From Methanocaldococcus jannaschii DSM 2661 (GTDB lineage: Archaea; AGJL01; Methanococci; Methanococcales; Methanocaldococcaceae): a stretch of 32,000 nt of DNA. A program made the position numbers and the translations under genes. Positions 2,308 to 31,609 of this stretch are shown in pieces (the first letter of the stretch is position 1; every line of letters starts with the position of its first letter). Where the stretch lies: the NCBI RefSeq assembly GCF_000091665.1, contig NC_000909.1:122871-154870 (forward strand). Direction: 5' to 3'. The notes beneath the pieces are model-generated. The model was not told where the DNA came from and did no database searches. It was given only the letters and a program-made list of their open reading frames with translations.

Positions 2308-3584
2308 CTAAGTTTTTACTCTAACTTTTCCAGTTAATAATAACTCCATAATTTTCTTTTTCATTCTTTGTAGTTTTTCTTTCTTTTGTTTTTTCAATTC
2401 TATGCTTTTATCTACTGAACTTAATATTTTAGCTATTTGTTTTTGCTCTTCTAAAGGAGGGAGAGGGATTTTAAAGTTTTCAAGCATAGATTTTGATAAT
2501 TCTTTAAAAGTGCTTCCCCCACTTAGATTTTCAAGTAAATTTTTTTTAAACTTTAAATAATAAGCATAAAATTCAGTATTAACCGAATCGTTATTTTTTG
2601 GAATAATCCCTTGCAACCTTGATTAAATGTAGATTCTACAGTTAAAACTGCAACATACCCAACTGGTGCTCTTGTTGATATAATAATTGAACCTTTTGGA
2701 ATTAAATTTAAGTTACACTTTTCTAATGCTATTTTTGTTACTTTTCTTTCACTACTTCCAATATAGATTTTTTCATTTAACCTGCTTAAATCCAATGGTG
2801 TTATCCAATTTATTTCTCCATTTTCCCAATATTCTGATTTTTTAGTTGATGGGGTAGTTCCCGTTTTTACTTCAAATATATCTTTAATCTCAAAAACTTC
2901 CCAATCCTCTGGAATCTCCCCAATCTCAGATTTTTTAAATCTACTATGCCCTATTCCCTTAGTTAATAATTTATGCATTAAACCCTTTTTAATCCTCTCC
3001 AATTTATTAATTGATTTCTCAATAATCTCAATACCTTCATCAATTTTAGTTAAAATTTTAGCTATTTGTTTTTGCTCTTCTAATGGAGGGAGAGGGATTT
3101 TAAAACTTTTTACTATTTGAGCATTCAAATTTTTCTGTGTTGTTTGCATTCCTAACTTAGAGTAATAATTTTTATTTTTAGCTAAAATATAATACAAAAA
3201 TTCACTTTCTAAAATATTATCTTTTGGTATTATCCCTAAAATTGCTTGATTTGTGGCTACTTCTATTTTATTTATTGCTGTTTCTCCAATACTTCCATAC
3301 ATAGCAAATAATACAGAATTTTTCGGAACTATCCACGCATTGGAATTATTTAAACCTTCTTCAGTTATTTTTATTTTTGTATTGGTTAAATATTTATTTG
3401 AATTGGTTATATCTTCAATTTTAACAAATGGAATAGTCCCATTTTTATAATATTCTTCTACACTGGTTTTTGGTGTTCCTCCTGCTTTTATTTTTTTACA
3501 AACATCCTTTAGCTCAACAATCTCCCAATCCTCTGGAATCTCTCCAATCTCTGTTTTTTTAAAATTCTCTTCTTTATAGAACAT
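2308..3584 (-). pseudogene. hsdS: Type I R-M specificity subunit HsdS, split by a 1-nt frameshift near 2611-2622 (as sequenced)
   Basis: Two target-recognition domains. The conserved spacer [18 protein letters not shown] occurs twice (about 50-bp direct repeat, 2427-2480 and 3056-3109). ORF 2553..3584 ends ...[10 protein letters not shown] in the wrong frame. ORF 2308..2616 resumes with QGIIPKNN, which parallels [12 protein letters not shown] of TRD1. Adding one T to GGTT would give [12 protein letters not shown] in frame. Confidence 0.85.
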
Positions 3585-3937: not shown

Positions 3938-5681
3938 TTAACTTCCAGCCCTTAAAATTCCCTCAACATATCCAATAACTTCATCTAAAACCTCTTTCTC
4001 CTTCTTCTCAATCTCCTTAAACTCCTCTAACTCCTTCCTTAAATCAATATCCTCCTTCTCCTCAACTGGAAAGACATACAAGCTAACATTCAGATTATAA
4101 TCATTCTTTCTAATCTCCTCTAAATCAACAACTCTGCTAAACCCTTCAATATCCTCCCAATTCTCATAGACATCAACAATCTTATCAATATTCTCCTCCC
4201 CCAATCTATTCAATCTCCTAACCTCTGGATGCTTCTCAAACTCCAAAGATGCATTTATAAATAAAATCTTCCCCTTCCTCTCCTCTGGCTTATTTTTATT
4301 TAAAATCATCACAATTCCTGGAGCTGTAACATTATAAAACAACTTCTCTGGCAATAAAATAATAGCCTCAATTAAATCCTTCTCAACAATCTCCTTCCTT
4401 ATCTTCTTCTCCTTCCCTCCTCTAAATAATGCCCCTGAATCTAAAACAATTCCCACTTTTTTCCTCGCAAAATACAACATCAATTGAACCCATGCCCAAT
4501 CTGCTGACTGCTTAGGAGGATAACCACCTCTAACAAAAGTGTTATAAATCCTCCTAACATCTGGATTTTCCTTTAAAACATCTTCATTATATCCATCCAA
4601 GTTCCATGGTGGATTGGCAATGGTATAATCAACCTCTCCAAATTTTGGGATTTTTTAAGCTATCTCCAATATAAATCTCATACTCCTCACTATCAACTCC
4701 ATGTAATATCAAATTCAACTTTGCCAAAATTGCCATAATCTCATTTCTCTCCTGCCCATAGAGATAAATCTCCCCCCCATAGTTATCTTTAACATACCTA
4801 TAAGATTCAATCAGCATAGTTCCGCTACCACAGGCAGGGTCTAAAACCTCACTATCTTTTTCAATATCCAACAAATTCACTATCAACCTAACAACCTCTA
4901 CTGGAGTATAGACCTCCCCCTCTTTACATTTTTGAGGGGCAAAGTATGACAAAATCCATTGATATGCATCACCAATAGCATCATAATCAATCTCTGAAAA
5001 GTCCATCTCATTATAAACTCTAACCAATTCCTCCAAAATATGCATGTTATCCTCATTAATAAACCCAATAAGCCCCAAAACCTCAACCAATTTAGATAAA
5101 TCTTTTAAATTATCATTAAGATTTGCTATCTTGTTTAATGCATTTGCCAACTCCATTATTGTCTCTCTACTTTTAACAATTTCATGCCAAACATACAACT
5201 TTCCTTCATCTTCATCATAGAGCGTTAAATAACTCCTATTTGCCATTAGATAAGCCTGTGTTTTAGAATATCCCTCACTAACGAATTTCTCAACTAATGC
5301 CAGATATTTATCACTAATTGCCTTATAAAATAAAAATACCAATAACACTTTGTAATCAACACTCGTTCTAATTAAATCTGCACAATATTTTAGATTTCTT
5401 ATTAAATTATCTTTTGTTGGTTTCTTTGCTGATTTAACAAATTGATATAACCTTTTTCTTTTATCCTTAGGGTCTTTCTTTGCTATAATTATTTCCTTTC
5501 TTCTTAAAATAGATAAAAGCTCTTTTGTATTCTCTGCTTCAATTCCTTCTTCTTTTAAAGCTTTATCTGCCTCTTCTAAGGTAAATGGTTCATATTTAAA
5601 CTTTTTAAATAAAATACTTCCTCTTTTTTTAACCCAATTGTCTAAATCTGCAAACTCTAATAGCATTGTATCACCATACAA
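3938..5681 (-). pseudogene. hsdM: Type I R-M N6-adenine methyltransferase HsdM, split by a 1-nt frameshift at the run 4643-4646 (as sequenced)
   Basis: SAM motif I, LDPACGSGTMLI, lies in ORF 4629..5681. The catalytic motif IV, DYTIANPPWN, lies between the two track ORFs in the frame of 3938..4600. Removing one A from CCCAAAATTT gives a continuous GDSLKNPKFGEVDYTIANPPWNLDGYNEDV. The probable true start is ATG 5666, with a GGTGA SD 4 nt upstream. Confidence 0.88.
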
Positions 5682-5733: not shown

Positions 5734-6555
5734 CTACAACTCATTATAACACTTCATCAACAAAACAGCGTCATACTCCAACATAGGACTTTCACATATA
5801 ACAGTTCCAGAGGCATCAAAATCCTTCAAAGCTTTTAAAACATCTCTATAGTTAAAGTTAGATTCATTTAAAGGCAAATGTCTCCTTTCTCCTCCTTTTC
5901 CATATTCTATTCCAGATAAATGAATATGCATATCTTTTATAGCCTCTTTTCCTAAAACATTCTCAACTTTTTCAAGAATTTTATAAAAAGAGTTGTAATC
6001 GTTTATAACTCCCCTACTTCTTGCATAAATATGGGAGAAATCAATACATGGTAAAATATTCAGCTCAAAGCATAATTTTAGTGTCTCATCAATATCTCCA
6101 AATTGAGTAGTTTTTCCAGTAGTTTCAGGCCTTAGCATAACATTTAAATTTAAAGCCTCTAACTTATCCAAAATTCTCTGAATATTTGATTTTATTCTAT
6201 TGTAGGTTACTTCTTTACTTCTTTTCAAATAATATCCAGGATGAAAAACTAAATTTTTTCCACAATTATTCAAAACCTTAGCAGTTTTAATTATTCTCCT
6301 TATGCTATTCTCTACTTTTTCCTCCTCATTTGCATTAAGATTTATATAGTGAGGGGCATGGGCTGAGAAAATAATATCTTCTCCATACTCTTTCAACTTT
6401 TTAGCATAATCTTCTTTCATATAAACTCCTTTAACAAATTCCAACTCCATAGCTCCTAAATTTAATTTTCTTAAGACATCTACAGCTTTAAATTCATCCT
6501 CTGCAGATATTGGAACTCCAGCAGTGCCAAATATCAACATAATTTCCCTATTCAT
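5734..6555 (-). CDS. Endonuclease IV-like protein (AP endonuclease family 2, xylose-isomerase-like TIM barrel)
   Basis: 273 aa. Metal-ligand-like blocks SAHAPHYINL, VFHPGYY, RPETTGK, IDFSHIY and MHIHLSG follow the family layout. Confidence 0.6.
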   Translation of the reverse strand: MNREIMLIFGTAGVPISAEDEFKAVDVLRKLNLGAMELEFVKGVYMKEDYAKKLKEYGEDIIFSAHAPHYINLNANEEEKVENSIRRIIKTAKVLNNCGKNLVFHPGYYLKRSKEVTYNRIKSNIQRILDKLEALNLNVMLRPETTGKTTQFGDIDETLKLCFELNILPCIDFSHIYARSRGVINDYNSFYKILEKVENVLGKEAIKDMHIHLSGIEYGKGGERRHLPLNESNFNYRDVLKALKDFDASGTVICESPMLEYDAVLLMKCYNEL

Positions 6556-6631
6556 TTTCTTTCTTATCCTCTTTTTCTTCTTTATCTAAAGGCTTAGGGG
6601 GGACTCTTGCAACCGTTATATATCCAGCCAT
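6548..6631 (-). pseudogene. Displaced duplicate of the trmI 3' coding end (reads MAGYITVARVPPKPLDKEEKEDKKENE*)
   Basis: Hand-translated. Aligns codon for codon with the trmI C-terminus GYITVARVPPEPLDREEEKE. Its stop, TAG 6548-6550, overlaps the start of the downstream gene (ATG 6555-6553). Confidence 0.7.
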
Positions 6632-6684
6632 AGGGAAACCCTATTGGGATACCCTAACACCTCCTCGCTTACGCTCGGAGGTGT
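6630..6684. repeat. GC-rich bipartite palindromic element, copy A (possibly one of the published M. jannaschii MJRE palindromic repeats)
   Basis: Hairpin 1 is ATAGGG-AAA-CCCTAT (6630-6644). The linker is TGGGATACCC. Hairpin 2 is ACACCTCC (6657-6664), loop TCGCTTACGCTC, GGAGGTGT (6677-6684). Related copies are at 12177-12237 and, in part, 8332-8358. Confidence 0.75.
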
Positions 6685-6693
6685 AAATTATTT

Positions 6694-7542
6694 TTATTCT
6701 TTCTCTTCTTCTCTATCTAAAGGCTCTGGTGGAACTCTCGCGACAGTTATGTATCCAGTATGTCCAATCATCCTTGTTGATGGCCTAACACCTTTTTCAG
6801 AGATTTCAATCTCTCTCTCAATAATCTCATAGGTGTGGATATCCCAAAATCCTTCCTCTTTAAGCTTCTCTACAGTTTTTTTAACTTGCTCTATGTATGG
6901 GAGATAAGTAACTATTCTCCCCCTCTTTTTGTTTAAAGCCTTTTTTGCATTCTCTACAACATTCCAGGGGTCTGGTAAATCTAAGACAATAACATCAACA
7001 TCCTTCTCATCTATCTTCTCCCTAACATCTCCAATTTTTTGTATGACATTGAATAATCCATCTTCAATTTCAATCTCATCCTCATCATCAAACTCTTCAT
7101 CTAAACCAATAATTTTTTGCCCTTTTTTAATAGCTCCAACTCTCAACAGATTTTTCCTTGCAACTTTGGCAAATTCTGGCCTTATATCATAAGTAATAAC
7201 TTTCCCTGTCTTACCAACAGCATTTGATAGATACATAGTTAAAGCTCCAGAGCCAGTTCCAGCTTCAACTACTGTCTCTCCCTCTCTAATTCCAGCTCTT
7301 GCTATAATAAACCCAATATCTTTTGGTAATAGGGTTGTTACTGTCCTCTTCATTCTCTTTAAGATATCAAACATTGTAGGTTCAACCAAATAGAAAGTAT
7401 GTCCTTTGTGGGATTTTAACTCAACTCCTTCCTCAATATCCTTCATATCTACAATTCCCAAATCTGTTCCAAACTTCTCAACATTCTTTTTTAACAAATA
7501 TCTCTTCCCTCTCTCATCCACTAACAATTTATAAGCAAACAT
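6694..7542 (-). CDS. trmI: tRNA (adenine-N1)-methyltransferase TrmI/Gcd14 family
   Basis: 282 aa. SAM motif VVEAGTGSGALTMYL, DLPDPW catalytic-region motif, and an acidic insertion DEEFDDEDEIEIED. Confidence 0.8.
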   Translation of the reverse strand: MFAYKLLVDERGKRYLLKKNVEKFGTDLGIVDMKDIEEGVELKSHKGHTFYLVEPTMFDILKRMKRTVTTLLPKDIGFIIARAGIREGETVVEAGTGSGALTMYLSNAVGKTGKVITYDIRPEFAKVARKNLLRVGAIKKGQKIIGLDEEFDDEDEIEIEDGLFNVIQKIGDVREKIDEKDVDVIVLDLPDPWNVVENAKKALNKKRGRIVTYLPYIEQVKKTVEKLKEEGFWDIHTYEIIEREIEISEKGVRPSTRMIGHTGYITVARVPPEPLDREEEKE

Positions 7543-7546
7543 AATA

Positions 7547-8239
7547 TCACTCTATAATTAGCTTTGTCTGTTTTGATTTATCCAATATCCTTTTACATGT
7601 TTTCCAGTGAGTTCTTGCAATATCAGGAAGTTTTTTATGCTTTTTAAAGTAATCTTCAAGAAACTTTATAGTTTTTGGGTCTGATGGATAACCGCTCCCA
7701 ATATCTCCATAAATTTTTTTGTAGTAGTCTATTATCTCATCCCGTTCTGCCTTTGCTATTATTGAGGCAGCTGAAACAACAGGATACTTAGCATCTGCCT
7801 TATGTTCAGCTATAATTTTTATGTTTAAATTTCTTTCTTTAATTATATCCTCTATCTTATCTTTAAAACTATCCTCAAATTTTTTAGTGTTTGTACTGCA
7901 TGCATCAATATAAATTTCAATTTCATCATCCCTTATATTCAACTTTTCTATCAAATTTTTAGCAACCTTGGAAAAGGCGTTAATTTCAATATCATTTAAG
8001 TTTATTGAGTTCATTAATTGGTTTATTTCCTCTGCTTCTAAGATACGTTTTTCTACATAACCCAAATTTTCAAGTAACTTTTTTAGATAAGCCCTTTTAT
8101 TTTTAGTTAGCTCCTTACTATCTTTAACTCCCAATTTCTTTAATTCCTCTTCTCTCTCTTTTTCAATTGCAAAAGCACAAACAACCATTGGACCCAAAAC
8201 AGGCCCTCTTCCAGCTTCATCAATACCAATAATTATCAT
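7547..8239 (-). CDS. rnhB: Ribonuclease HII
   Basis: 230 aa. IIGIDEAGRGPVLGPMVV N-terminal active-site block, VSAASIIAK, and GSGYPSDP. Confidence 0.9.
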   Translation of the reverse strand: MIIIGIDEAGRGPVLGPMVVCAFAIEKEREEELKKLGVKDSKELTKNKRAYLKKLLENLGYVEKRILEAEEINQLMNSINLNDIEINAFSKVAKNLIEKLNIRDDEIEIYIDACSTNTKKFEDSFKDKIEDIIKERNLNIKIIAEHKADAKYPVVSAASIIAKAERDEIIDYYKKIYGDIGSGYPSDPKTIKFLEDYFKKHKKLPDIARTHWKTCKRILDKSKQTKLIIE

Positions 8240-8290
8240 AATTGCACCTCTTTTTTAAAACGAAATCTAAAAGTATTACATAGCTAAATT

Positions 8291-8358
8291 GGACATTAAT
8301 TGGGGCTGAAAGCCCCAACTTAATGGACGTCGGGTATCCCAATAGGGCGGAGCCCTAT
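8291..8358. repeat. GC-rich palindromic element, copy B (inverted relative to copies A and C, with a different second hairpin)
   Basis: Extended hairpin CATTAATTGGGGC-TGAAA-GCCCCAACTTAATG (8294-8325), then GGGTATCCCA, then ATAGGGC-GGA-GCCCTAT (8342-8358). Positions 8291-8322 are an exact inverted copy of 20803-20834. Confidence 0.75.
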
Positions 8359-8473
8359 GGATAGGAAATGCATTTCTGCTCATAAGTTTATCTCTATATA
8401 ATAATTTCTACTTAGTTTAAGCAGTAAGCATTTTATATGCTTTTTTAAAGAATATTAAAATACTACAAAAACC

Positions 8474-8582
8474 TATAGTTTTTTGCAAAAGTCATTAAAA
8501 TTCATAATGAAAATTTGAACGCCTTCCTTTGGAAGGCGTTCATTAATGCCTTATCCATCTTAAATATTTGCAAAAAACTATA
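8474..8582. repeat. Long-stem palindromic element: 16-bp outer inverted repeat plus a central 11-bp GC hairpin
   Basis: TATAGTTTTTTGCAAA (8474-8489) pairs with TTTGCAAAAAACTATA (8567-8582). The centre is GAACGCCTTCC-TTT-GGAAGGCGTTC (8517-8541). It ends 2 nt before the purP SD AGGTGA. Confidence 0.7.
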
Positions 8583-10051: not shown

Positions 10052-11130
10052 ATTAAAATCAGACCGTTTCGGAATGGAAATCAGGGAGGTAGGAGGGAGG
10101 TTCTCCTTGGATTTCTATTAAAATCAGACCGTTTCGGAATGGAAATCTATTAAGTCCCATGCAGACCTACCAATACGTTCATAGTAAGGCCTAATTAAAA
10201 TCAGACCGTTTCGGAATGGAAATTATGTTACAAAAGTTGGAGAGGAAGATTTAAAACTTGATTAAAATCAGACCGTTTCGGAATGGAAATTTAATTCTAA
10301 TGCCTTGTTTTTTACATCTTCTGGAAATTAAAATCAGACCGTTTCGGAATGGAAATGTCTTTAATTTCATCTCTATAGCTTCTTCTATTGCTTTAAATTA
10401 AAATCAGACCGTTTCGGAATGGAAATAATGTAAATTTAAAAATATAACGTTGCAAATAAGGAATTAAAATCAGACCGTTTCGGAATGGAAATCAGTAGTT
10501 AAAACTTAAAGCACAAAACACCTTCATTCCATTAAAATCAGACCGTTTCGGAATGGAAATGAAGTATTTTTATCTTTTGCGATATTTTCTATAATCTCAT
10601 CAATTAAAATCAGACCGTTTCGGAATGGAAATTATTTTTGTTGTTTAAATCTATTGTGTATAATGTGGTAATTAAAATCAGACCGTTTCGGAATGGAAAC
10701 TTTTTGCTTCATTTTCATTTAAATTAACTATAAAACAGTAATTAAAATCAGACCGTTTCGGAATGGAAACATGGAGCAAAACAACATATTGTTTTAATAG
10801 TGGATGATTTTTAATTAAAATCAGACCGTTTCGGAATGGAAACGCATTACAGAATTTATATTATTTATATACTGTTTATGATTAAAATCAGACCGTTTCG
10901 GAATGGAAACAAAACACCACCTTCAATAAACTTATCAATTTGATATTTATTAAAATCAGACCGATTCGGAATGGAAATTGTATTAATTCCAGTTGTAATA
11001 TTTGATAATGAGACATTAAAATCAGATTAAAATCAGACCGTTTCGGAATGGAAACTTTATCTAATTTAACCCGCTTATGGTTTTAGATGAACCCCGCTCC
11101 ATTAAAATCAGACCGATTCGGAATGTGAAA
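10052..11130 (+). CRISPR. CRISPR array: 16 repeats of 30 bp and 15 spacers of 35-47 bp
   Basis: Repeat starts: 10052, 10117, 10194, 10261, 10327, 10397, 10463, 10531, 10603, 10671, 10741, 10814, 10881, 10949, 11026, 11101. Consensus ATTAAAATCAGACCGTTTCGGAATGGAAAT. Repeats 10-13 and 15 end in C. Repeats 14 and 16 carry CCGATTC. Repeat 16 is further degenerate (GAATGTGAAA). All spacers are unique. Confidence 0.97.
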
Positions 11131-11243
11131 ATCCCTTAGCTTTTTTTATATTGTCTTATTAATAGGATAGAAATCTGTAAAAATAGAGTTATTTAGATTT
11201 AATGATAATTGCAACATAAAAAAGTATAATGTAATTAATTATT

Positions 11244-12104
11244 CTATTTAGCCCCATTCTCCTGTTTTACTGGATATGGCATAAATTCAACTGTTCCCCT
11301 TTGTCTTACTGGTTGCTTATACAATTCCATTAATGTATAAACCTCTTCAGGAACATTCGTATCTACATCTAAACCAAGTTCTTTAGCTTCTTCAACAGTT
11401 ATTGGATAGTCATGAGTCCATCTTCCTTCTGTTAATATCTTAGACAATTCTTTGGCTTTTTCTTCTCCATACTTATCCTTCAATAAATTATATACAAAAT
11501 TTTGAACTTGATTTATTGCTTTTTTAGCAATATCTGCCAATATTAATGTTTGGTCGTCTGCTTTATCAGCCCCTTTCTGCTCTACAGCTTTAACTATACT
11601 TGGAGCAGGATATTGCCCAAGTTGTGGGTCTACAGGTCCCAAAACTGCATTTTCATCCATGATTATTTTATCTGCAGCTAAAGCTATTAAAGTTCCTCCA
11701 CTCATTGCATAGTGTGGAACTATAACTCTCGTCTCTGCTGGATGAGCTTTTAATGCCTTTGCTATTTGAGTAGCTGCCAAGACTAAACCTCCTGGTGTGT
11801 GTATAATTAAATCTATAGGTTTATCTTTTGGAGCTGCCCTTATGGCCCTCAAAATCTCCTCACTATCTTCAATTGTTATAAATTTATAAACTGGAATTCC
11901 AAACAAGCCAATACTCTCCTGCCTATGTATCATAGTTATTACTGTTGAATTTCTTTTATTTGATAGCTCTCTAAGTATTTTTAATCTTGCAAGTTGTAAT
12001 TGCTTATACTGTATTTGAGGAGCCATAATTAAATAAAAGAACAAAAGCCACCAAATTAATGAGCTAATAAAACCACTTAATGGGTCCATTTTCTCCCCCC
12101 ACAT
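11244..12104 (-). CDS. Membrane-anchored ClpP-class serine protease (SDH / SppA-like family)
   Basis: 286 aa. N-terminal TM helix, then IHTPGGLV and MSGGTLIALAADK blocks of the ClpP/crotonase-fold peptidases. The likely start is ATG 12089, preceded by GGGGGGAG. Confidence 0.65.
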   Translation of the reverse strand: MWGEKMDPLSGFISSLIWWLLFFYLIMAPQIQYKQLQLARLKILRELSNKRNSTVITMIHRQESIGLFGIPVYKFITIEDSEEILRAIRAAPKDKPIDLIIHTPGGLVLAATQIAKALKAHPAETRVIVPHYAMSGGTLIALAADKIIMDENAVLGPVDPQLGQYPAPSIVKAVEQKGADKADDQTLILADIAKKAINQVQNFVYNLLKDKYGEEKAKELSKILTEGRWTHDYPITVEEAKELGLDVDTNVPEEVYTLMELYKQPVRQRGTVEFMPYPVKQENGAK

Positions 12105-12123
12105 AAATAAAATGAAAGTTCTT

Positions 12124-12172
12124 TTAGATTATCTTTCTCATCCAATTATCTAACCTCTCTAAAAAGTTATCT
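12124..12172 (-). pseudogene. Displaced original 3' end of the CobQ-like gene (reads ...[15 protein letters not shown])
   Basis: Positions 12139-12172 are 34/34 identical to 12267-12300, inside the intact gene. Hand-translation continues in frame to a stop at 12124-12126. Confidence 0.7.
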
Positions 12173-12266
12173 CCCCATAGGGCTATCGCCCTATTGGTAT
12201 ACCCGGGATGCATTGCCTCGCTTACGCTCGGCAATGCCTCTTAAATTAATATTTATTAATATTTTC
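12173..12266. repeat. GC-rich bipartite palindromic element, copy C (94-bp insert bounded by 34-bp direct repeats)
   Basis: Hairpin 1 is ATAGGGC-TATC-GCCCTAT (12177-12194). The linker is TGGTATACCC. Hairpin 2 is GCATTGCC (12210-12217), loop TCGCTTACGCTC, GGCAATGC (12230-12237). The AT-rich tail 12246-12266 encodes the C-terminus now in use, ENINKY*. Confidence 0.8.
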
Positions 12267-13694
12267 CATCCAATTATCTAACCTCTCTAAAAAGTTATCT
12301 TCCTCATCCTTTATATGATTATTTATTTCAACCTCTGGGATTTCTATTTCTAAATCAACATTAAAGGCATTTCTGCAGAAGCTTTCATAATCAATCTCTA
12401 CTTCTGGAATTAGTCCCCTACTCTCATTAGCTATTTTTCCAACTCCATAGAGCTTTATGTTATGTTTTTCAGCCAAACTTTTTAATTTATTGAAAGAGTT
12501 CCAATCATAGACTTTATTTAAAATTACTCCTTCAACTTTAATCCCAATATCTTTGAGTAGGCTGTAATAAGCCATTGCCTCTACAAAAGCTCCCTCTATC
12601 CCACTTATATTGCAAGCACTTACTATATAAACTGGAAATCCAAGCTTTTTGGCTATTTGATAAGAGGAAATATTTTTTAATGCTGCAGTAAAAGCTCCCA
12701 TAACCCCTTCAACAATTATGTAATCATAATCTGACTTTTTTATATAATCTAAAAATTTAGAAACATCAACCCATCCTCTCTCTCCAATCTTTATGCTGTT
12801 GTATTTTGTCATCTTCTCTCTCAATAAATAAAGAGCTGGCACTATATCCCTAACATCCCCGCCAATCTTAGCAACAAAAACTCTTCCATTTAATTTTGAT
12901 GATAAAGCAGTTGTTAAAAACGTCTTTCCACTGTTTGATGATGTTGCCAATAAAATAATCCCTCTTTTTTTATTAACATCTTTTTTATTATTCTCTTTTA
13001 GTAATTTTGGGTTTAATCTATATTTTAAAGCCCTCTTTTTTAATTCATCTTTTATAATCTTATTTTTTTCAAATATTTCCTCTTTCTCATCCTCTGTAAC
13101 TCCCAAATGTTTTAAAAAATTGTCTCTGACAAATTCATTATCTAAGAAGTTATGAACCATTGTTCCAAACACTTTTCCTTTAAAAGCTCCAGAGATAATT
13201 TCTTTTTCAGCTCCAAGTTTATAATTTAGCTTTTTTACTTTTGAAACTGTTAGAATTTTAGTTTCTTTATCAACTACCTCAATATTTCCATAAGTATGGC
13301 AGTGAAACCCTTCTCCCTTTCCCTCTCCAAATATTGATTTTTTTACTTCAAATTCTACTCTATCTGTGCAAACTAATGGAGAAAACTCAACATCCAACAA
13401 ACCTAAGCCCTCTTTAATTATTGGAACGCTGCTTTTTCTTCCAATGTCTATCTTTTTAGCTAATATCTGAAAACCACTGCAAATGCCAATTATATACCCA
13501 TTAAAGTTAATTATTTCTTTTTTTAAATCATCATTTAATGATTTACTTTCAATTAAACTTCCTCCAGGTATTATCAAAGCATCTAAATCTTTAATTTCTT
13601 TATAATTATTTTCAGTTATAATCTTTGTTGGTAGATTGCCGAAATCTTCAAATAATGGAAGAGACCCCTTAATATCCAAAATACCAATTTCCAT
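12246..13694 (-). CDS. CobQ/CobB-like glutamine amidotransferase with permuted domain order (GATase N-terminal, DTBS/CobQ-type P-loop C-terminal)
   Basis: 482 aa. The N-terminal half has IIPGGS, GICSGFQ (nucleophile Cys) and HNFLDNE, as in the CobB/CobQ GATase domain. The C-terminal half has ATSSNSGKT (P-loop) and VEGVMG. Confidence 0.6.
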
Positions 13695-15409: not shown

Positions 15410-15434
15410 ATGAAACTTTTAGAAAAAGTTTCAT
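15410..15434 (+). terminator. Perfect 11-bp stem hairpin ATGAAACTTTT-AGA-AAAAGTTTCAT downstream of the K+ channel operon
   Basis: Read directly from the sequence, 35 nt after the stop at 15375. Function is inferred from position alone. Confidence 0.25.
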
Positions 15435-15473
15435 CAAAATGGAATGGGTATTCAGAAAAAGGTCTAAAATTAT

Positions 15474-16049: not shown

Positions 16050-16670
16050 TTGCTTCCTATTTTGTTATCTTTTGAAGGAAAGAAAGTGGCAGTATTTGGT
16101 TGTGGAAGTGTAGGAAAAAGGAGAGCTAAGAAAATATTAAAAAGTGGAGGGATTGTTGATATATACTCTAAAGAATTTGATGAAGAAATAAAAAAATTAA
16201 AAGAAAGCAATAAAAATCTAAATTTAATTGAAATTGATATTAATCAGTTAAGTGATGAAGAGCTAAAAAATATTATAATGAAGTATGATTTTATAGTAAC
16301 AGCTATCAACGATGAAATTAATAAGAGAATTGTTAAATTAGCTAAAGAGCTAAACAAATTTGTAAATTCTTCAACAAAGACAGAAGGAGTTAATTTTATC
16401 ATCCCTGCTTATACAGAGGTTGATGAAGTAATATTCAGCATATACACAAAAGGAAAAAGTCCTTTAATAGCTAAGCATATAAGAATTTTTGTTGAAAACT
16501 ATCTAAAATCAACTGACATAAATATGATAGCCTATATAAGAGAGTTTTTAAAAGAGACAATTCCTAAACAGAAAGATAGGGAAAAAATATTAAAAAAGAT
16601 TTTTGAAAATGAAAAATTTAGAGAAGAATTAAAAAAATTAATAGAGAAGTGGGAAAATGGAAATCATTGA
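16050..16670 (+). CDS. Precorrin-2 dehydrogenase / sirohydrochlorin ferrochelatase-like (SirC / CysG N-terminal domain family)
   Basis: 206 aa. N-terminal Rossmann motif KVAVFGCGSVGKRRAKKIL. TTG start preceded by GGGAGGGA. Confidence 0.7.
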   Translation: MLPILLSFEGKKVAVFGCGSVGKRRAKKILKSGGIVDIYSKEFDEEIKKLKESNKNLNLIEIDINQLSDEELKNIIMKYDFIVTAINDEINKRIVKLAKELNKFVNSSTKTEGVNFIIPAYTEVDEVIFSIYTKGKSPLIAKHIRIFVENYLKSTDINMIAYIREFLKETIPKQKDREKILKKIFENEKFREELKKLIEKWENGNH

Positions 16671-16956
16671 AATTATAAAGGAGTTTAAAAAGGATATATC
16701 AACCATTTTAAAAGATAAATTAGACAGAGTTATTTTATTTGGAAGTTATGCAAGAGGAGATTATGATGAAGAGAGCGATGTTGATGTTTTAATTTTAGTT
16801 AAAGAAATGCCTACTCTTAAAGAAAAACAAAAAATTATTAAAATTGCCTCAAGATACTCATTAAAATATGATATTCTAATTAGCCCAATAATTTACAAAA
16901 AAACTATAAAAACGTCTTTTATTGATGAGGTTGAAAATTATGGAGTTGAGGTATAA
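16657..16956 (+). CDS. Minimal nucleotidyltransferase (MNT), antitoxin-like
   Basis: 99 aa. LFGSYARGDYDEESDVDVLIL motif. ATG overlaps the 3' end of the upstream gene by 14 nt. Confidence 0.85.
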   Translation: MEIIEIIKEFKKDISTILKDKLDRVILFGSYARGDYDEESDVDVLILVKEMPTLKEKQKIIKIASRYSLKYDILISPIIYKKTIKTSFIDEVENYGVEV

Positions 16957-17368
16957 AAGAGAGCTTGAAAAATTAATAGAAAAAGCAGAAAAATCATTAG
17001 AAGCATCAGAAAATCTTTATAATAGCGAATTTTATGATTTTGCTGTTTCAAGAATATACTACTCAATGTTTTATTGTGTTAAGGCTTTATTATTAACAAA
17101 AGAAATTAATCCTAAAAAACACAGTGGAGTTTTAAAAATGTTTGCAAAGGAATTTATAAAAACTAATGAGTTAGATGTTGAATTATTTGAATATATAAAT
17201 GAAGCATACAATTATAGGCAAACAGCTGATTATGACGCAACCATTGAAATAAAAAAGGAAGAGGCTGAATATTTACTTCACAAAGGGCATATATTCTTAA
17301 ATAAAACTAAAAAATACTTAATATCAAAAAATATACTAAAGGGAGAGAATGATAATACTAAAAGCTGA
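16922..17368 (+). CDS. HEPN-domain protein (classical HEPN family), partner of the MNT
   Basis: All-helical, about 140 aa, with a conserved-looking YNYRQTADYD block. The likely start is ATG 16940, preceded by GAGGT. Overlaps both the MNT stop and the hemA start. Confidence 0.75.
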   Translation: MMRLKIMELRYKRELEKLIEKAEKSLEASENLYNSEFYDFAVSRIYYSMFYCVKALLLTKEINPKKHSGVLKMFAKEFIKTNELDVELFEYINEAYNYRQTADYDATIEIKKEEAEYLLHKGHIFLNKTKKYLISKNILKGENDNTKS

Positions 17369-20566: not shown

Positions 20567-20620
20567 TTATAACACTCTTTTTATAGCATTCCAGATTAAA
20601 AAACTCTGTGGTTTTAAAAG
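20567..20620 (-). pseudogene. Displaced duplicate of the ATPase 3' coding end (reads ...[17 protein letters not shown])
   Basis: Hand-translated. Aligns with the C-terminus in use, [20 protein letters not shown]. Differences are mostly synonymous, including TCA versus AGT for Ser. Confidence 0.65.
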
Positions 20621-20640
20621 AAACTTTTAGTAAAAGTTGA

Positions 20641-20699
20641 ACAAAAACTCTTCGAGTTTTTGTAGCCCGAAGCTAACGCTTCGGTTTCATCAAAACTCG
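20641..20699. repeat. Nested palindromes: ACAAAAACTC-TTC-GAGTTTTTGT, CCGAAGC-TAAC-GCTTCGG, and an outer CGAGTTTT...AAAACTCG
   Basis: Read directly from the sequence: 10-bp stem at 20641-20663; 7-bp stem at 20667-20684; an 8-bp outer pairing of 20653-20660 with 20692-20699. Confidence 0.6.
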
Positions 20700-20705
20700 T
20701 CCATT

Positions 20706-20802
20706 TAACCAATTATCAAAGTTTTTAATTAAATAAGGCACATATAGAAGCCCTTTGGGCTTCTAAATTCCATAGTAAATAATATCCTTTGATAATTGGT
20801 TA
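20706..20802. repeat. Long-stem palindromic element: 16-bp outer inverted repeat plus a central 8-bp GC hairpin
   Basis: TAACCAATTATCAAAG (20706-20721) pairs with CTTTGATAATTGGTTA (20787-20802). The centre is AGAAGCCC-TTT-GGGCTTCT (20746-20764). The interior resembles 8490-8566 in reverse orientation (shared TGCCTTAT, ATG-AATTT-GAA). Confidence 0.7.
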
Positions 20803-20834
20803 TAAGTTGGGGCTTTCAGCCCCAATTAATGTCC
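20803..20834. repeat. GGGGC-hairpin repeat, an exact inverted copy of 8291-8322; supplies the last two codons and stop of the ATPase gene
   Basis: TAAGTTGGGGCTTTCAGCCCCAATTAATGTCC is identical over 32 nt to the reverse complement of 8291-8322. On the minus strand, GGA CAT TAA gives G H stop. Confidence 0.8.
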
Positions 20835-21941
20835 ATTCAGTAATTTCTTTATAGCATTCCAGATTAAAAATGATTGTGGTTTTAAAATTCCTTCAATAGG
20901 ATTTAGGAATAAAATATTTTTCTTAACTAAATAAATATAAACTGGTTCTGGTATATCATCATCACTAACTTCATAATTTTCTTTAAATAATTTTAACGCA
21001 TTTATAATATCATCCTTTTTAATCTCAATGATTTCATCTTTAAGTTCTACTTTTGGTTTTATATAATCCAACTCCTTTAAAAAATACTTTAGTTTTTGAG
21101 TTTCTTCTTTAAGCATTAAATTTAGAATATCTTCTAACTTCCTATACCTCATCTCATCAATCACACTGTAGATATATACCGGTTTTCCTCCTACATAGTT
21201 ATAGATTAACTCTTTATCTTCATCAGAGAGTTTTTTATTTAAAATCTCTTTAGCCAAGAAATCCATAAATTTTAAAGCTGTCTCTTTATCAAAGTCATCC
21301 ACTAAGAGGTATTTGGCTCTACCTTCCAACTCTCCAGCACTATAAACATATTCAATAAATAAGCTATCAGAACTTAGACAAAAAACATGGCATAGATGTT
21401 GTTCTTTAGTTAAAGAAACTAAAAACTGAAACAACTCTTTTAACAAGTATTTTTGCCAATTTAAAACTACATCTTTAATCATCTGAAGTTCATCAAGTAT
21501 TAACACTGGCTGTTTTCCACTCTTTTTAACCTCTAATAGTATAGAGTTTAAGTATTGGAAGGCATCATTTATTTTCTCTTCAAATAATTTATCAAACTCT
21601 ACTTCAGGTATTGGAATACCAGTTAAAATCTTAGCCCCTTTTGTTATCAAATTTAAAACTTCTGATTTATCTTTTATTTTTTCAAAGAAATCATCTTTTT
21701 TAGTGGTAAAGATAGCTTCAATAAATTCCCTCTTTTCTGAAATTAAATAAGTCCTAAAATTAATATAAAAAACCTTATAATCATCACTTAGTTTGTTTTC
21801 AATGATGTGTTTTATTAGAGCAGTTTTACCAGAATTTAAAGGGCCGTAGATGAAATAAATTATATTTGGTTCTCCCTCTAAGATTGATAGAATTTCATGA
21901 ATTTCTTTTTCTCTATTGAAGAATTTCATTTGAATCACCAT
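20826..21941 (-). CDS. Archaeal ATPase family protein (P-loop NTPase, Arch_ATPase/DUF234-type)
   Basis: Walker [12 protein letters not shown] and Walker B LILDELQ. The likely start is ATG 21929 ([10 protein letters not shown]), with GGTGA 5 nt upstream. Confidence 0.75.
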
Positions 21942-23196: not shown

Positions 23197-23718
23197 ATGG
23201 GGGATGTTAAAATGGATAAAGAGCTTTTACATAAAAAAATTAAAAAAGATATTGAGGATTTAATAAACAACCATCCTCCAGAAAGAACGTTAGGGAATTT
23301 AATACCCTTATCTATATTTCAAGCAGTAAGAATAGGAGTTTTAACTGCTGGATGTGGCATTGAAGCAATAATTTACAATATTGGAAAAGATATTGGTAGA
23401 GAAGTAATTTCAAGATACGTCGATAGGGACAATTTACTCGAAAGCTTTGCAGAAATATTAAAGAAGGCAAAAATTGGCATTTTAGAAGTAAAAAAAGTTG
23501 AAGAAAATGAGATGATTCTAATTTTAAAAGACTGCATATCTTGCCATAATGTTCCAAATGTTGGAACTACCCTCTGTCATTTTGAGGCTGGACTAATAGC
23601 TGGAACTTTGGAAAAAAAGCTAAGAAGAAAAGTCAATGCTGTTGAAACAAAATGTTGTGGAAAGGGTGATGAGTACTGCGAATTTTTAGTAAAAATTGAA
23701 GATAAATTGTATTGGTGA
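23197..23718 (+). CDS. V4R (4-vinyl reductase) domain protein
   Basis: The C-terminal part has a Cys-rich block (CISCH...CHFEAGLIAG...CCGKGDEYCEF) typical of V4R small-molecule-binding domains. The likely start is ATG 23212, preceded by GGGGGAT. Confidence 0.6.
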   Translation: MGDVKMDKELLHKKIKKDIEDLINNHPPERTLGNLIPLSIFQAVRIGVLTAGCGIEAIIYNIGKDIGREVISRYVDRDNLLESFAEILKKAKIGILEVKKVEENEMILILKDCISCHNVPNVGTTLCHFEAGLIAGTLEKKLRRKVNAVETKCCGKGDEYCEFLVKIEDKLYW

Positions 23719-24425: not shown

Positions 24426-26672
24426 TTGAAAATTCGTTTATATGGTGAAACGATGGTCGTGGGCAATATAATAGAAGGAGGGAAAACAGTTCTAAATTTA
24501 ACAAAAGAAATCTTAGAGAAAGAAGATGAGAACCTAAAAGTATCTTATCCTGGAACAAATTACAACCTACCAATTATATACGGTCTTTTAGGTAAAAAGA
24601 TAGAGACAGTCAAAGACTTAAAAGAATTAATTAACTCACTTGAGATAAAAGATGAAGAAACGTTAGAAAATGCGTTAGATGCTGGAGTTGTAACATTAAT
24701 ATGTGCTGAAGCGATTGAGGCTTTAAAATATGCAAAGAGTGAAAAACCTTACAAAGAGCCATATGTTGGCTTTATTCCTGATGAAATTTTGAGAGGTTTA
24801 GGAGTTCCTCTCGTAGAAGGAAAAATCCCTGCAATTTTAGTAGTTATTGGAAAAGTTGGAGATAAAGAGAAGCTAAAAAAACTCATAGATGACATAAAAA
24901 AGAGAAATATTTTGGCGTTATTAGTTGGAGATATAGTTAAAGAGATGGATGAAGCTGACATTGAGTATGGTTTAGACAAACTCCTTGTTCCAGTTGGAAA
25001 TGAAATAACCTCAGCAATACACGCTGCAAACTTGGCTATAAGAGCTCCATTAATATTTGGAGGAATTGAGCCTGGAAAAACAGAAGAAATTATAGACTAT
25101 CTAAAAAACAGAGTTCCAGCTGTTGTTGTAGCTTTGGGAGAGTTGGATAACATAACCTTAGCCGCTGGAGCTGGATGTATAAAAGCTGGAGTCCCAGTTA
25201 TAACCAACAATGAGGTTCCAGTTATTAAAGGAGCTTTAGAGAGTTCAGACATTGATAATATAGTAGAAAATGCCCTAAAAATGAAAGGCGTTAAGGTTAA
25301 GGTAGTTGAATTTGACATCCCTGTCTCTGTTGGGCCGATGAATGAGGGGGAGAGAGTTAGGGGCCCTGATATGTATGTTGAACTTGCAGGGCCGAAGAGT
25401 TATGGTTTTGAGTTGGTAAAAGTTGTAAATAAAGCAGAGGATAAGGTTGAAATTATAGGAAAAGATATTGATGAGATGGAAGAGGGTAGTAGAAACCCAT
25501 TCGCTATAATTGTTGAAGTTAGTGGAAGTAATTTGGAGGAAGATTTAGAAGGAGTTTTAGAAAGAAGAATCCATGAGTTTTTAAATTACATAGAAGGAGT
25601 AATGCACCTAAACCAAAGAGACCAAGTATGGATAAGAATAAATAAAAACTCGTTTAACAAAGGTTTAAGACTAAAACACATTGGTGAAGTTGTAAAACAA
25701 CTCTTTAAAGAACATTTCCCAATTGTTGAGAAGTGTAATGTAATTATTATAACAGACCCAGATAAGGTTAAAGAAGAGTTAGAGAAAGCCAAAGAGATTT
25801 ACAAAAAGAGAGATGAAAAAACAAAATCCATAAGAGAGGAAGATGTTGATGTATTCTACGGCTGTGTAATGTGTCAGAGTTTTGCTCCAACTCATGTATG
25901 TATTATAACACCAGACAGACCTTCCCTCTGTGGAAGTATAAACTACTTAGATGCAAGGGCTGCTGCTAAAATAGACCCTAACGGACCGATATTCGAAATA
26001 CCAAAAGGAGAATGCTTAGATGAAAAGTTAGGAATCTACACAGGTGTGAATGAGGTTGTTAGGGAGAGGTCTCAAGGAAGTGTTGAAGAGATGGCATTAC
26101 ATAGTGCTTTAACAAACCCATGCACATCTTGCGGATGCTTTGAGGCTATTGTCTTCTACATCCCAGAAGTTGATGGATTTGGAGTAGCCCATAGAAACTT
26201 TAGAGGAGAGACACCGTTTGGTTTGCCATTCTCTACTTTAGCTGGGCAGTGTAGTGGTGGAAAGCAGGTTCCTGGGTTCGTTGGTATTTCAATATCTTAT
26301 ATGAAATCCCCTAAGTTCTTACAGGGAGACGGTGGTTGGGAGAGGGTTGTTTGGTTACCGAAAGAGTTAAAAGAGAGAGTTAAAGATGCGATACCAGAAG
26401 AGTTGTATGATAAGATAGCTACAGAAGAAGACGTTAAAACAACTGATGAATTAATCAAGTTCCTAAAAGAAAAAGGACATCCAATAGTTAAAAAGACAGA
26501 GGAAGAAGTTGTTGAAGAAGTCGAAGAAGAGAAAGAAGAGGTTAAAGCTACTGAAGAGGAAAAAGAAGGCATTGAAGTTGGTGAGTTAATAACCAAGTTA
26601 GCAAAAGAGGGAGGAATCCAAATTATTATGAAGAACGTCAAGATTGTGATAAATCTCAATGTGAAAAGATAA
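24426..26672 (+). CDS. Long-form acetyl-CoA synthase (A-cluster subunit, CdhC/AcsB) with a bacterial AcsB-like N-terminal domain
   Basis: The C-terminal about 450 aa are paralogous to cdhC at 30200..31609 (CVMCQSFAPTHVC, CTSCGCFE). The N-terminal about 300 aa contain SYPGTNYNLPIIYG and AEAIEALKYAK, which resemble the AcsB N-terminal blocks YPDTAYYLPVI and AAEIIEALRYLKY as recalled from memory. The probable true start is ATG 24453, with GGTGA 4 nt upstream. Confidence 0.8.
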   Translation: MKIRLYGETMVVGNIIEGGKTVLNLTKEILEKEDENLKVSYPGTNYNLPIIYGLLGKKIETVKDLKELINSLEIKDEETLENALDAGVVTLICAEAIEALKYAKSEKPYKEPYVGFIPDEILRGLGVPLVEGKIPAILVVIGKVGDKEKLKKLIDDIKKRNILALLVGDIVKEMDEADIEYGLDKLLVPVGNEITSAIHAANLAIRAPLIFGGIEPGKTEEIIDYLKNRVPAVVVALGELDNITLAAGAGCIKAGVPVITNNEVPVIKGALESSDIDNIVENALKMKGVKVKVVEFDIPVSVGPMNEGERVRGPDMYVELAGPKSYGFELVKVVNKAEDKVEIIGKDIDEMEEGSRNPFAIIVEVSGSNLEEDLEGVLERRIHEFLNYIEGVMHLNQRDQVWIRINKNSFNKGLRLKHIGEVVKQLFKEHFPIVEKCNVIIITDPDKVKEELEKAKEIYKKRDEKTKSIREEDVDVFYGCVMCQSFAPTHVCIITPDRPSLCGSINYLDARAAAKIDPNGPIFEIPKGECLDEKLGIYTGVNEVVRERSQGSVEEMALHSALTNPCTSCGCFEAIVFYIPEVDGFGVAHRNFRGETPFGLPFSTLAGQCSGGKQVPGFVGISISYMKSPKFLQGDGGWERVVWLPKELKERVKDAIPEELYDKIATEEDVKTTDELIKFLKEKGHPIVKKTEEEVVEEVEEEKEEVKATEEEKEGIEVGELITKLAKEGGIQIIMKNVKIVINLNVKR

Positions 26673-30199: not shown

Positions 30200-31609
30200 A
30201 TGTTTGATGATATCCCTGTCTCTGTTGGGCCGATGAATGAGGGGGAGAGAGTTAGGGGCCCTGATATGTATGTTGAACTTGCAGGGCCGAAGAGTTATGG
30301 TTTTGAGTTGGTAAAAGTTGTAAATAAAGCAGAGGATAAGGTTGAAATTATAGGAAAAGATATTGATGAGATGGAAGAGGGTAGTAGAAACCCATTCGCT
30401 ATAATTGTTGAAGTTAGTGGAAGTAATTTGGAGGAAGATTTAGAAGGAGTTTTAGAAAGAAGAATCCATGAGTTTTTAAATTACATAGAAGGAGTAATGC
30501 ACCTAAACCAAAGAGACCAAGTATGGATAAGAATAAATAAGGATTCTTTTAATAAGGGATTGAGATTAAAGCATATTGGAAAAGTCGTTCAAAGATTGTT
30601 TAAGGCAGAGTTTCCGTTTATAGAAAAATGTGATGTAACCATCATAACAGACCCAGAAAAAGTTAAAGAAGAGTTAGAAAAGGCAAGAGAAATTTACAAC
30701 AAAAGAGATGAGAAAACTAAGGCACTGCATGAAGAGGATGTTGATGTATTCTATGGTTGTGTGATGTGTCAAAGTTTCGCTCCAACACACGTGTGTGTTA
30801 TAACTCCAGACAGACCAGCGTTGTGTGGAGGTATAAACTACTTAGATGCAAGGGCTGCTGCTAAAATAGACCCTAACGGACCGATATTTGAAATACCTAA
30901 AGGAGAATGCTTGGATGAAAAGTTAGGAATTTACTCTGGAGTAAATGAAGTTGTTAGAGAAAGGTCTCAAGGAACTGTTGAAGAGGTAACCCTACATAGT
31001 GCATTAGAAAAACCTTGCACATCTTGCGGATGCTTTGAGGCTATTGTCTTCTACATCCCAGAGGTTGATGGATTTGGTATAGCACATAGGGGATATAAAG
31101 GAGAAACTCCAATGGGAATTCCATTCTCTACTTTAGCTGGGCAGTGTAGTGGTGGAAAGCAGGTTCCTGGGTTCGTTGGTATTTCAATATCTTATATGAA
31201 ATCCCCTAAGTTCTTACAGGGAGACGGTGGTTGGGAGAGGGTTGTTTGGTTACCGAAAGAGTTAAAAGAGAGAGTTAAAGATGCGATACCAGAAGAGTTG
31301 TATGATAAGATAGCTACAGAAGAAGACGTTAAAACAACTGATGAATTAATCAAGTTCCTAAAAGAAAAAGGACACCCATGTGCTGAAAGAATAGGTGCTG
31401 AAGTTGAAGAAGAGGCAATTGAAGAGGAAGAAGTAGAAGAAGAGATGGAAGAAGTTGAAGGAATTGAAGTACCAACTATGACTCTTCCAGGAACATTTGC
31501 TGGGCTTCCACCAGGAATAAAAATAGTCTTATACAATGCAGTAATTAAAGCAGAAAAAATAATTATTACAAAAGAAGAGCCAGAAAAGAAGAAGAAAAAG
31601 AAGAAGTAA
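30200..31609 (+). CDS. cdhC: CODH/ACS beta subunit (acetyl-CoA synthase, A-cluster), short archaeal form
   Basis: 469 aa. CVMCQSFAPTHVC...LCG [4Fe-4S] ligands and the CTSCGCFE Ni-binding Cys-Gly-Cys. An acidic region, then a poly-Lys tail. GGTGA SD upstream. Confidence 0.9.
   Translation: MFDDIPVSVGPMNEGERVRGPDMYVELAGPKSYGFELVKVVNKAEDKVEIIGKDIDEMEEGSRNPFAIIVEVSGSNLEEDLEGVLERRIHEFLNYIEGVMHLNQRDQVWIRINKDSFNKGLRLKHIGKVVQRLFKAEFPFIEKCDVTIITDPEKVKEELEKAREIYNKRDEKTKALHEEDVDVFYGCVMCQSFAPTHVCVITPDRPALCGGINYLDARAAAKIDPNGPIFEIPKGECLDEKLGIYSGVNEVVRERSQGTVEEVTLHSALEKPCTSCGCFEAIVFYIPEVDGFGIAHRGYKGETPMGIPFSTLAGQCSGGKQVPGFVGISISYMKSPKFLQGDGGWERVVWLPKELKERVKDAIPEELYDKIATEEDVKTTDELIKFLKEKGHPCAERIGAEVEEEAIEEEEVEEEMEEVEGIEVPTMTLPGTFAGLPPGIKIVLYNAVIKAEKIIITKEEPEKKKKKKK

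Follow-up and report, generated by a model that had tools for sequence, protein, structure and literature searches.

A CobQ/CbiA-like gene of Methanocaldococcus jannaschii DSM 2661 ends in a 94-bp insert that is flanked by a perfect 34-bp direct repeat. The gene lies in the window, which is the whole 32,000-nucleotide stretch analysed here (contig NC_000909.1, positions 122,871 to 154,870). The insertion is real and lineage-specific. The 94 bp are probably a recent insertion of a small, non-autonomous mobile hairpin element that leaves a long, variable and polar duplication of its target. The wider result is that such duplication is family-wide in this tiny archaeal hairpin element. The original prediction, made from the sequence of the window, was essentially right about the CobQ-like site. 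All genes at this locus are on the minus strand, and its features, from the struck gene towards its downstream neighbor, are as follows.

12246 to 13694, minus strand: CobQ/CbiA-like gene whose 3′ end was struck; GATase_3, CbiA and AAA_26 domains.
12267 to 12300, minus strand: gene-proximal copy of the 34-bp repeat, functional codons of the CobQ/CbiA-like gene.
12244 to 12266, plus strand: AT-rich tail of the insert; its minus strand encodes ENINKY and the new stop (TTA, 12246-12248).
12205 to 12243, plus strand: linker GGGAT, hairpin 2 (12210-12237) and the right end CTCTTA (12238-12243).
12173 to 12204, plus strand: CC junction bases, hairpin 1 (CCATAGGGC-TATC-GCCCTATTGG) and TATACCC, forming the sharp left end; hairpin 1 to TATACCC spans 12175-12204.
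12139 to 12172, minus strand: distal copy of the 34-bp repeat, a displaced 3′ end that is now non-coding and abuts hairpin 1.
12124 to 12138, minus strand: displaced original last four codons and stop, AGAAAGATAATCTAA, encoding RKII*.
11244 to 12089, minus strand: SDH-type serine protease gene, downstream of the CobQ-like gene.

The 34-mer CATCCAATTATCTAACCTCTCTAAAAAGTTATCT occurs exactly twice in the window, at 12139-12172 and 12267-12300. The two copies are identical at 34/34 positions, as had been claimed, and 100 dinucleotide shuffles gave 0 matches. When mismatches are allowed the repeat grows to 45 nt at 91% identity. The 94 bp between the copies occupy 12173-12266. RKII* of the CobQ-like gene has become ENINKY*, so that four codons and a stop are swapped for six codons and a stop from the insert tail. 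The distal copy together with 12124-12138, read on the minus strand, still spells ...DNWMRKII*, the ending that the original prediction had read from it. The last 10 nt of the tail resemble the target left of the repeat; this was seen at the CobQ-like site and at no other recent event and was taken as chance. A promoter and terminator scan of 11900-12500, with bacterial-type models that are ill-suited to archaea, returned nothing above shuffles.

Relatives of M. jannaschii retain the empty site. The C-termini of seven close orthologues read DNW(I/M)K(K/R)II, and DNA alignment of Methanocaldococcus sp. FS406-22 and of a metagenome contig revealed a single copy of the segment with no insert. At the empty site the segment is followed by KKII* and then, 12-14 nt on, by the protease gene (in FS406-22 the ATG lies 12 nt after the CobQ-like stop). 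A second metagenome contig is identical to the window at this site. Insertion and duplication are one change: the window exceeds the empty site by exactly 128 bases, which is the 94-bp insert plus one 34-bp copy. The empty sites and the orthologue C-termini bear out the claim that the insert replaced the C-terminus and stop codon. The insertion appears recent because its repeat is perfect. Another difference lies nearby. Between the displaced CobQ-like stop and the protease ribosome-binding site the window has 22 extra bases at ~12102-12123 (AAGAACTTTCATTTTATTTATG in gene sense), which are missing in FS406-22 and in a metagenome relative.

The insert had been described as a palindromic element. 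It is hairpin-forming, but it consists of two GC-rich hairpins plus a tail and not of one palindrome. Hairpin 2 has an 8-bp outer stem (GCATTGCC/GGCAATGC) enclosing a conserved inner TCGCTTACGCTC. A covariance model matched 12175-12243 with 91 bits, and DNA folding of the two strands against shuffles gave z = -4.8 and -5.2. In an alignment of 22 copies, compensatory double changes were observed at all 9 stem pairs of hairpin 2, and G-U occurred in 1 of about 198 cells. The stem sequence of hairpin 2 varies freely across the family with complementarity kept, and hairpin 1 variants also stay matched (GGG/CCC, GGGG/CCCC, GGAGG/CCTCC). Because the stem changes are compensatory, the hairpin structure is selected in whatever lineage spawns new copies, and wobble pairs are almost absent, which is a better fit for DNA than for RNA. 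The right end of the family is short and conserved (CTCTTA, GTAAATT or AATTAATGTCC). Past it lies an AT/T-rich tail of 0-40 nt that differs between copies even inside one subfamily; at the CobQ-like site the first 7 nt of the tail (AAATTAA) recur behind CCTCTTA in other copies and the remainder is unique. A search of Rfam with the element, at gathering and E-value thresholds, found no family, the GA-cis match being at chance level (21 bits against a gathering score of 34.7). A tRNA search of the element found none.

To define the family, the hairpin 1 pattern was scanned in one genome per species across 185,579 species. Every one of the 62 loci found belongs to Methanocaldococcaceae. In total 79 hairpin-1 copies lie in 66 loci, all in Methanocaldococcaceae and located between genes. 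No copies of the element were found in a plasmid collection by blastn or in viral contigs by pattern scan. A metagenome scan for the exact right end and tail of the element, as donor or sibling, gave no match. A second metagenome scan yielded three contigs, one of which is the L037 site (L numbers denote individual loci); the other two share one further repeat-flanked event. Each tail sequence was also searched in all fetched loci and no donor flank was found.

Flanking repeats were examined by aligning the 200 nt left of hairpin 1 to the 350 nt right of it, with mismatched flank pairs as the null. An abutting direct repeat above the 95th percentile of the null was present at 37 of 67 testable copies. 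Orthologous duplicates were then removed, likewise "repeats" that were a CRISPR (clustered regularly interspaced short palindromic repeats) repeat or another module. The independent events that remained number 23, of which 22 came from the window and the genome scan and 1 from metagenome contigs. Their repeats measure 24-84 nt (median 43) at 80-100% identity. At all 23 sites the repeat sequence is locus-specific and equal to the local target. Composites with another left hairpin (TGAAACTTTAATAAAGTTTCA) are likewise flanked by long repeats.

The window itself contains three more members of the family.

6557 to 6758, plus strand: older event at the 3′ end of trmI (GCD14); element at 6628-6687, with hairpin 1 and a ACACCTCC-type hairpin 2.
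8290 to 8360, minus strand: third hairpin-1 copy; its second hairpin (GGGGCTTTCAGCCCC) is of another type; located upstream of RNase HII, without a clear long repeat.
20580 to 20887, plus strand: composite multi-hairpin element at an ATPase gene; element at 20620-20835, tail to 20847.

The trmI repeats (6557-6627 and 6688-6758) are 71 nt long and 76% identical. Those of the composite (20580-20619 and 20848-20887) are 40 nt long with 36/40 positions identical, and the stop of the MJ1010-like ATPase (20826-20828) falls in the right end of the composite. Both cases are real, as the original prediction held when it counted three of three gene-end elements with a duplicated host 3′ end. That count is borne out for the window, and the link between element and duplicated gene end extends to 23 independent events in other Methanocaldococcus genomes.

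The duplications are polar. In all events the left repeat copy lies 0-6 nt from CCATAGGG, and the right copy lies beyond the tail. The gene overlapped by the duplicated segment is on the tail side in 18 events and on the hairpin-1 side in 3 (binomial p = 0.0015). Gene 3′ ends account for 14 events, the genes being antisense to the element; L070 is a possible fifteenth, judged by eye. In 10/14 of the 3′-end events the segment includes the stop codon, at 0-10 nt from its tail-side boundary. Since the native stop is inside the duplication, the gene keeps its own end. In the remaining 4/14 (including the CobQ-like gene and L030) the boundary falls a few codons before the stop, and the tail or element end gives a new one. 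Thus the proposal that insertion is tolerated through a stop carried by the element holds for a minority that includes the CobQ-like gene, but not for most 3′-end events. At gene 5′ ends there are six events, in which the segment contains the ribosome-binding site and ATG and the element runs in the sense direction. The tail-side geometry is alike for 3′ ends (element antisense) and 5′ ends (element sense). The same geometry in both orientations makes one mechanistic asymmetry simpler than two selective stories.

The junctions differ in their sequence. The motif CT[CT]TTA, which is element-end-like and the reverse of TAA(A/G)AG, is present at the tail-side target boundary in 7/22 events (p about 0.002); its background is 4% of random windows and about 9% at gene ends. 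At the hairpin-1 junction no microhomology beyond chance was found (0-3 nt only). The bases flanking hairpin 1 (CCAT, CAAC, GAAA, TTGC, CTTC, ATCT and others) have no consensus.

Several individual copies have features of their own. A short AT-rich palindromic module (GAAACTTTTAGAAAAAGTTTC-like) occurs in the window at 15412-15439, 20621-20647 and 23681-23706, one copy adjoining tRNA-Val; in other genomes (L020, L024) it is the left end of repeat-flanked composites. L040, at reverse-complement position 7703 of the metagenome-assembled genome (MAG) L_MetaBat.10, has an 84-nt repeat with 82/84 positions identical. Its tail holds a third copy of part of the target segment, 54 nt long and more diverged, and half of the AT-rich palindromic module. 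L040 could be a two-step event or could include a carried-along donor flank. In L010 of Methanocaldococcus sp. 28A (6177-6400) one family member is nested in another, with the 36-nt second hairpin on either side. Paired changes that preserve the stem distinguish the two hairpin copies, which hints that hairpin arms may be corrected against each other. The GGGGCTTTCAGCCCC-hairpin variant often adjoins CRISPR repeats or a degenerate likeness of them (...GGTCTGAATT|CCATAGGG), as at L009, L013, L017, L019, L032 and L055 of other Methanocaldococcus genomes, where 19-41 nt of CRISPR-repeat-like sequence stand on both sides.

How might a mobile hairpin element leave such a footprint? The duplication would arise most simply if two single-strand breaks, separated by 24-84 nt, were filled in. 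The hairpin-1 end would be joined flush to one target copy, inside the gene and without sequence preference, and the tail end would be joined in the AT-rich boundary beside the stop or start codon. With the tail joined at the gene boundary, the duplicated stretch would run into the tail-side gene. Spacers in the M. jannaschii genome are only about 10-30 bp, so a long duplication would let both neighbors survive: the struck gene would keep or nearly keep its end, and the next gene would keep its own upstream sequence. The long repeats would also offer a route to precise loss.

Several observations weigh against a mobile element of this kind. Terminal inverted repeats are absent and the right end is not sharply defined, which is atypical of transposase substrates. 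No transposase, integrase or reverse transcriptase domain was found in the window open reading frames scanned, and a survey of related loci totalling 480 kb found no hairpin-bounded coding element. A repeat is lacking at about 45% of copies, most of which lie in mosaic clusters, and at one composite in FS406-22. Upstream of RNase HII, the variant in the window differs from that in FS406-22 in second hairpin and tail, and the left junction, TTCCTAT|CCATAGGG, is identical in both. Finally, selection could be behind part of the gene-side asymmetry, the AT-rich tail acting as a substitute promoter or T-runs as orientation-dependent terminators. Inverted pairs of hairpin 1, 0.4-4 kb apart, were also considered as a mark of an autonomous element. 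Across the 480 kb, no transposase-sized unit other than ordinary genes was seen between paired hairpins; housekeeping genes lie inside the pair in the window (trmI and RNase HII), and the other three loci were not inspected.

A specific version of the mobile-element explanation, and not its opposite, is target-primed copy-in like that of short interspersed nuclear elements (SINEs), which we consider unlikely. A nick at the AT-rich boundary would prime synthesis on a single-stranded copy of the element, RNA or DNA, starting at its tail; this synthesis would run off at hairpin 1, and a second nick would fall 24-84 nt away. This would account jointly for the sharp hairpin-1 end, the variable AT/T-rich tail, the variable repeat length and the tail-side AT-rich junction with its element-end-like motifs, and the diverged partial target copy in the L040 tail would fit a carried-along donor flank. 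However, no reverse transcriptase was found in the window, the stems are nearly without G-U (1 of about 198 cells) and are a better fit to DNA than to RNA, and T-runs are not consistent at tail ends. Neither 5′-truncated copies nor a donor with a matching tail were identified. A polar form that dispenses with an element-encoded transposase, in which the AT-rich boundary nick would prime host polymerase on a single-stranded copy and the second nick would be distant, is rather improbable. If it were true, the element would be a counterpart of SINEs in a prokaryote, a hyperthermophilic archaeon, possibly with DNA as the template, and its duplication would double as a device for sparing neighbor genes and for precise excision.

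An enzyme-free event is quite improbable. In templated insertion by microhomology-mediated break-induced replication or fork stalling, a stalled strand would copy an element elsewhere and re-anneal behind its start, producing a duplication. Variable repeat length and a variable tail are expected from such a process, hairpins are able to stall forks, and the element-end-like motif stands at the tail-side boundary in a third of events. On the other hand, scattered end points would be expected on both sides, and the elements are full length at 23/23 sites. Nearly all events place the hairpin-1 junction at one and the same nucleotide, with microhomology not beyond chance, and this invariant left end disfavors template switching.

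Three further readings, like that of a classical MITE (miniature inverted-repeat transposable element), fail direct tests. Integrative elements duplicate gene 3′ ends, and the CobQ-like repeat covers one, so the copies might be attL/attR-like cores of a site-specific element that supplied a replacement 3′ end, with the 94 bp as an internal-deletion remnant. This has very little probability: the repeats of the 23 sites all differ, each being equal to its own target; the duplicated sequences also include gene 5′ ends, CRISPR-repeat-like sequence and other elements; the insert is a conserved 45-95 bp family member and not a random remnant; and no integrase was found in the window. Off-target CRISPR adaptation by Cas1-Cas2, which would duplicate a repeat length of ~30 bp, is just as remote. 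A 30-nt-repeat array lies 1 kb away, 34 bp is near 30, and some family members are in CRISPR-repeat-like sequence (L009, L019, L055), but the duplications spread over 24-84 bp without a ruler and the inserts are conserved family members of 43-257 nt rather than 35-45 bp spacers. The pair of a diversity-generating retroelement (DGR), with a variable repeat at the gene end, a template repeat downstream and a hairpin between, has a superficially similar layout (gene 3′ end, GC-rich hairpins, second copy) and is the least probable of all: the CobQ-like copies are identical, no reverse transcriptase was found in the window, gene 5′ ends are duplicated too, and only 18/58 mismatches are on adenines of the non-coding copy (A content 41%; 599 aligned repeat positions), 71% being transitions.

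The non-autonomous hairpin element was next compared with known systems. MJRE1-3 are palindromic repetitive elements of M. jannaschii (Suyama, Lathe & Bork, FEBS Lett 2005, cited in PMC2229807). As they are presented in that citing review, MJREs are found in the same genus and are short GC-rich palindromic repeats, mostly between genes, in several groups, some of them fused to coding regions. The hairpin family is probably the MJRE repeats. The abstract of the MJRE paper is said to count 141 copies, divided into three groups, and to report old age and coding potential; it reportedly makes no mention of long flanking duplications, polarity or empty sites. In the literature on MITEs, long target duplications and Methanocaldococcus, which did not include the 2005 MJRE paper, no description of the long repeats of the hairpin family was found.

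The MITEs of bacteria and archaea (reviewed in PMC2229807) resemble the hairpin family in several ways: they are non-coding, stay below 200 bp, exist in many copies, lie in intergenic sequence or at gene ends, can fuse to reading frames and are presumably mobilized in trans. A MITE has terminal inverted repeats and makes a short duplication of fixed length, often TA. In contrast, the hairpin family lacks terminal inverted repeats, is sharp at one end and fuzzy at the other, and makes duplications of 24-84 bp. Its inverted repeats are the two internal hairpins only, and the sequence of the left end (CCATAGGG...) has no relation to that of the right end (...CTCTTA plus tail). A different insert in the window, ~107 bp at 8474-8582, is palindromic and MITE-like, with good terminal inverted repeats (TAGTTTTTTGCAAA.../...TTTGCAAAAAACTA) and a duplication of only TA/TAG size; FS406-22 and M. 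bathoardescens lack it at the orthologous place. It looks like a classical MITE. Because its duplication is so short, the long repeats are a property of the hairpin family and not a host repair habit.

A 34-bp duplication is far above those usual for transposases, as the original prediction stressed, though it has a precedent in IS1634/IS1549. These make long, variable direct repeats of 8-514 bp, have no mechanistic model and are the only such insertion sequences in a review that also describes the IS1634 family as remarkably diverse in archaea (PMC2266710). They are the closest match to the footprint of the hairpin family, whose repeats are similarly long and variable at 24-84 nt. They differ in being 1.5-2 kb long with a DDE transposase and inverted-repeat ends, and most members of the IS1634 family make 5-6 bp repeats. 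No transposase was found in the window near the hairpin elements; the genomes were not screened for the IS1634 family.

The closest match to the hairpin mosaics is provided by repetitive extragenic palindromic sequences (REPs), bacterial interspersed mosaic elements (BIMEs) and REP doublets forming hairpins (REPINs), which share compensatory stem changes, mixed-module clusters and a place just after genes. REPs are tied to REP-associated tyrosine transposases (RAYTs), which are IS200/IS605-like, and are not known to leave a target duplication. Unlike the REP/REPIN-RAYT system, the hairpin family has long duplications as a rule and no conserved flanking tetranucleotide at its sharp end. In polarity the closest match is to the SINEs and long interspersed nuclear elements of eukaryotes, with their sharp 5′ end, variable A/T-rich 3′ tail, variable duplications and AT-rich first nick. 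The hairpin family differs from them in its DNA-like perfect stems; no reverse transcriptase was found in the window and no truncated copies were identified. DGRs and att duplications also present a gene 3′ end twice with structured DNA between. The hairpin family is without adenine-specific differences, its repeats are locus-specific and cover 5′ ends as well, and no reverse transcriptase or integrase was found in the window.

The trmI event is older. It is present with the same junctions in the window, in M. bathoardescens and in the more distant MAG M10. The site is clean and empty in FS406-22, which groups with the window and M. bathoardescens. Divergence of the trmI repeat (76% identity) is in line with between-species synonymous divergence, and this match rules out an imported foreign 3′ end. 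In all 3′-end events the repeat mismatches comprise 71% transitions without adenine excess, as expected for ordinary drift. Most parsimoniously, trmI received an old insertion that FS406-22 has since lost precisely, and the long repeats would provide an obvious route for such a loss. The pattern may also stem from allele replacement or from a hot spot. The site upstream of RNase HII is located as follows.

Window 8290-8360, minus strand; L066 1713-1781; L067 about 1780: hairpin element upstream of RNase HII; M. bathoardescens is empty.

The presence of two variants at one RNase HII junction suggests that module exchange or hot spots also shape these loci.

Long variable target duplications are a rare footprint of transposition. 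Here they are systematic in a tiny non-coding archaeal element with clear polarity, and many dated examples exist, with repeats from 34/34 perfect to 76% identical. With explicit junction rules and a family confined to one genus, the element is a tractable entry point. Genetic tools are now available for Methanocaldococcus. The family illustrates how a compact genome would absorb insertions at gene boundaries: the duplication would restore the end of the struck gene and leave the upstream sequence of the next gene in place. A C-terminus is occasionally rewritten, as in the CobQ-like gene, and the remaining repeats are long enough for clean loss. For annotation, the family accounts for odd species-specific C-termini and for pseudo-starts and pseudo-ends beside GC-rich hairpins in Methanocaldococcus.

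Other features of the window were recorded. A CRISPR-DR13 array with 30-nt repeats occupies 10052-11131, 1 kb from the CobQ-like site. The window also includes the end of a 23S rRNA gene and the gene order trmI / RNase HII / purP-like. Two CdhC (acetyl-CoA synthase beta) paralogues, 25313-26538 and 30208-31433, share 1.2 kb at 89% identity with the first 300 nt 100% identical, a pattern that suggests recent gene conversion. A type I restriction-modification methylase (N6_Mtase) on the minus strand is split between reading frames at 3938-4600 and 4629-5681, which match profile positions 149-311 and 3-119, respectively. A frameshift, a pseudogene or an insertion may explain the split. The adjoining specificity subunit (2553-3584) has the usual internal repeat. 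At 157-1470 on the minus strand, HepT-like RNase and nucleotidyltransferase genes of toxin-antitoxin type form a tandem duplication of a 656-bp unit at 70-77% identity, and a further nucleotidyltransferase-HEPN pair is located at 16657-17368.

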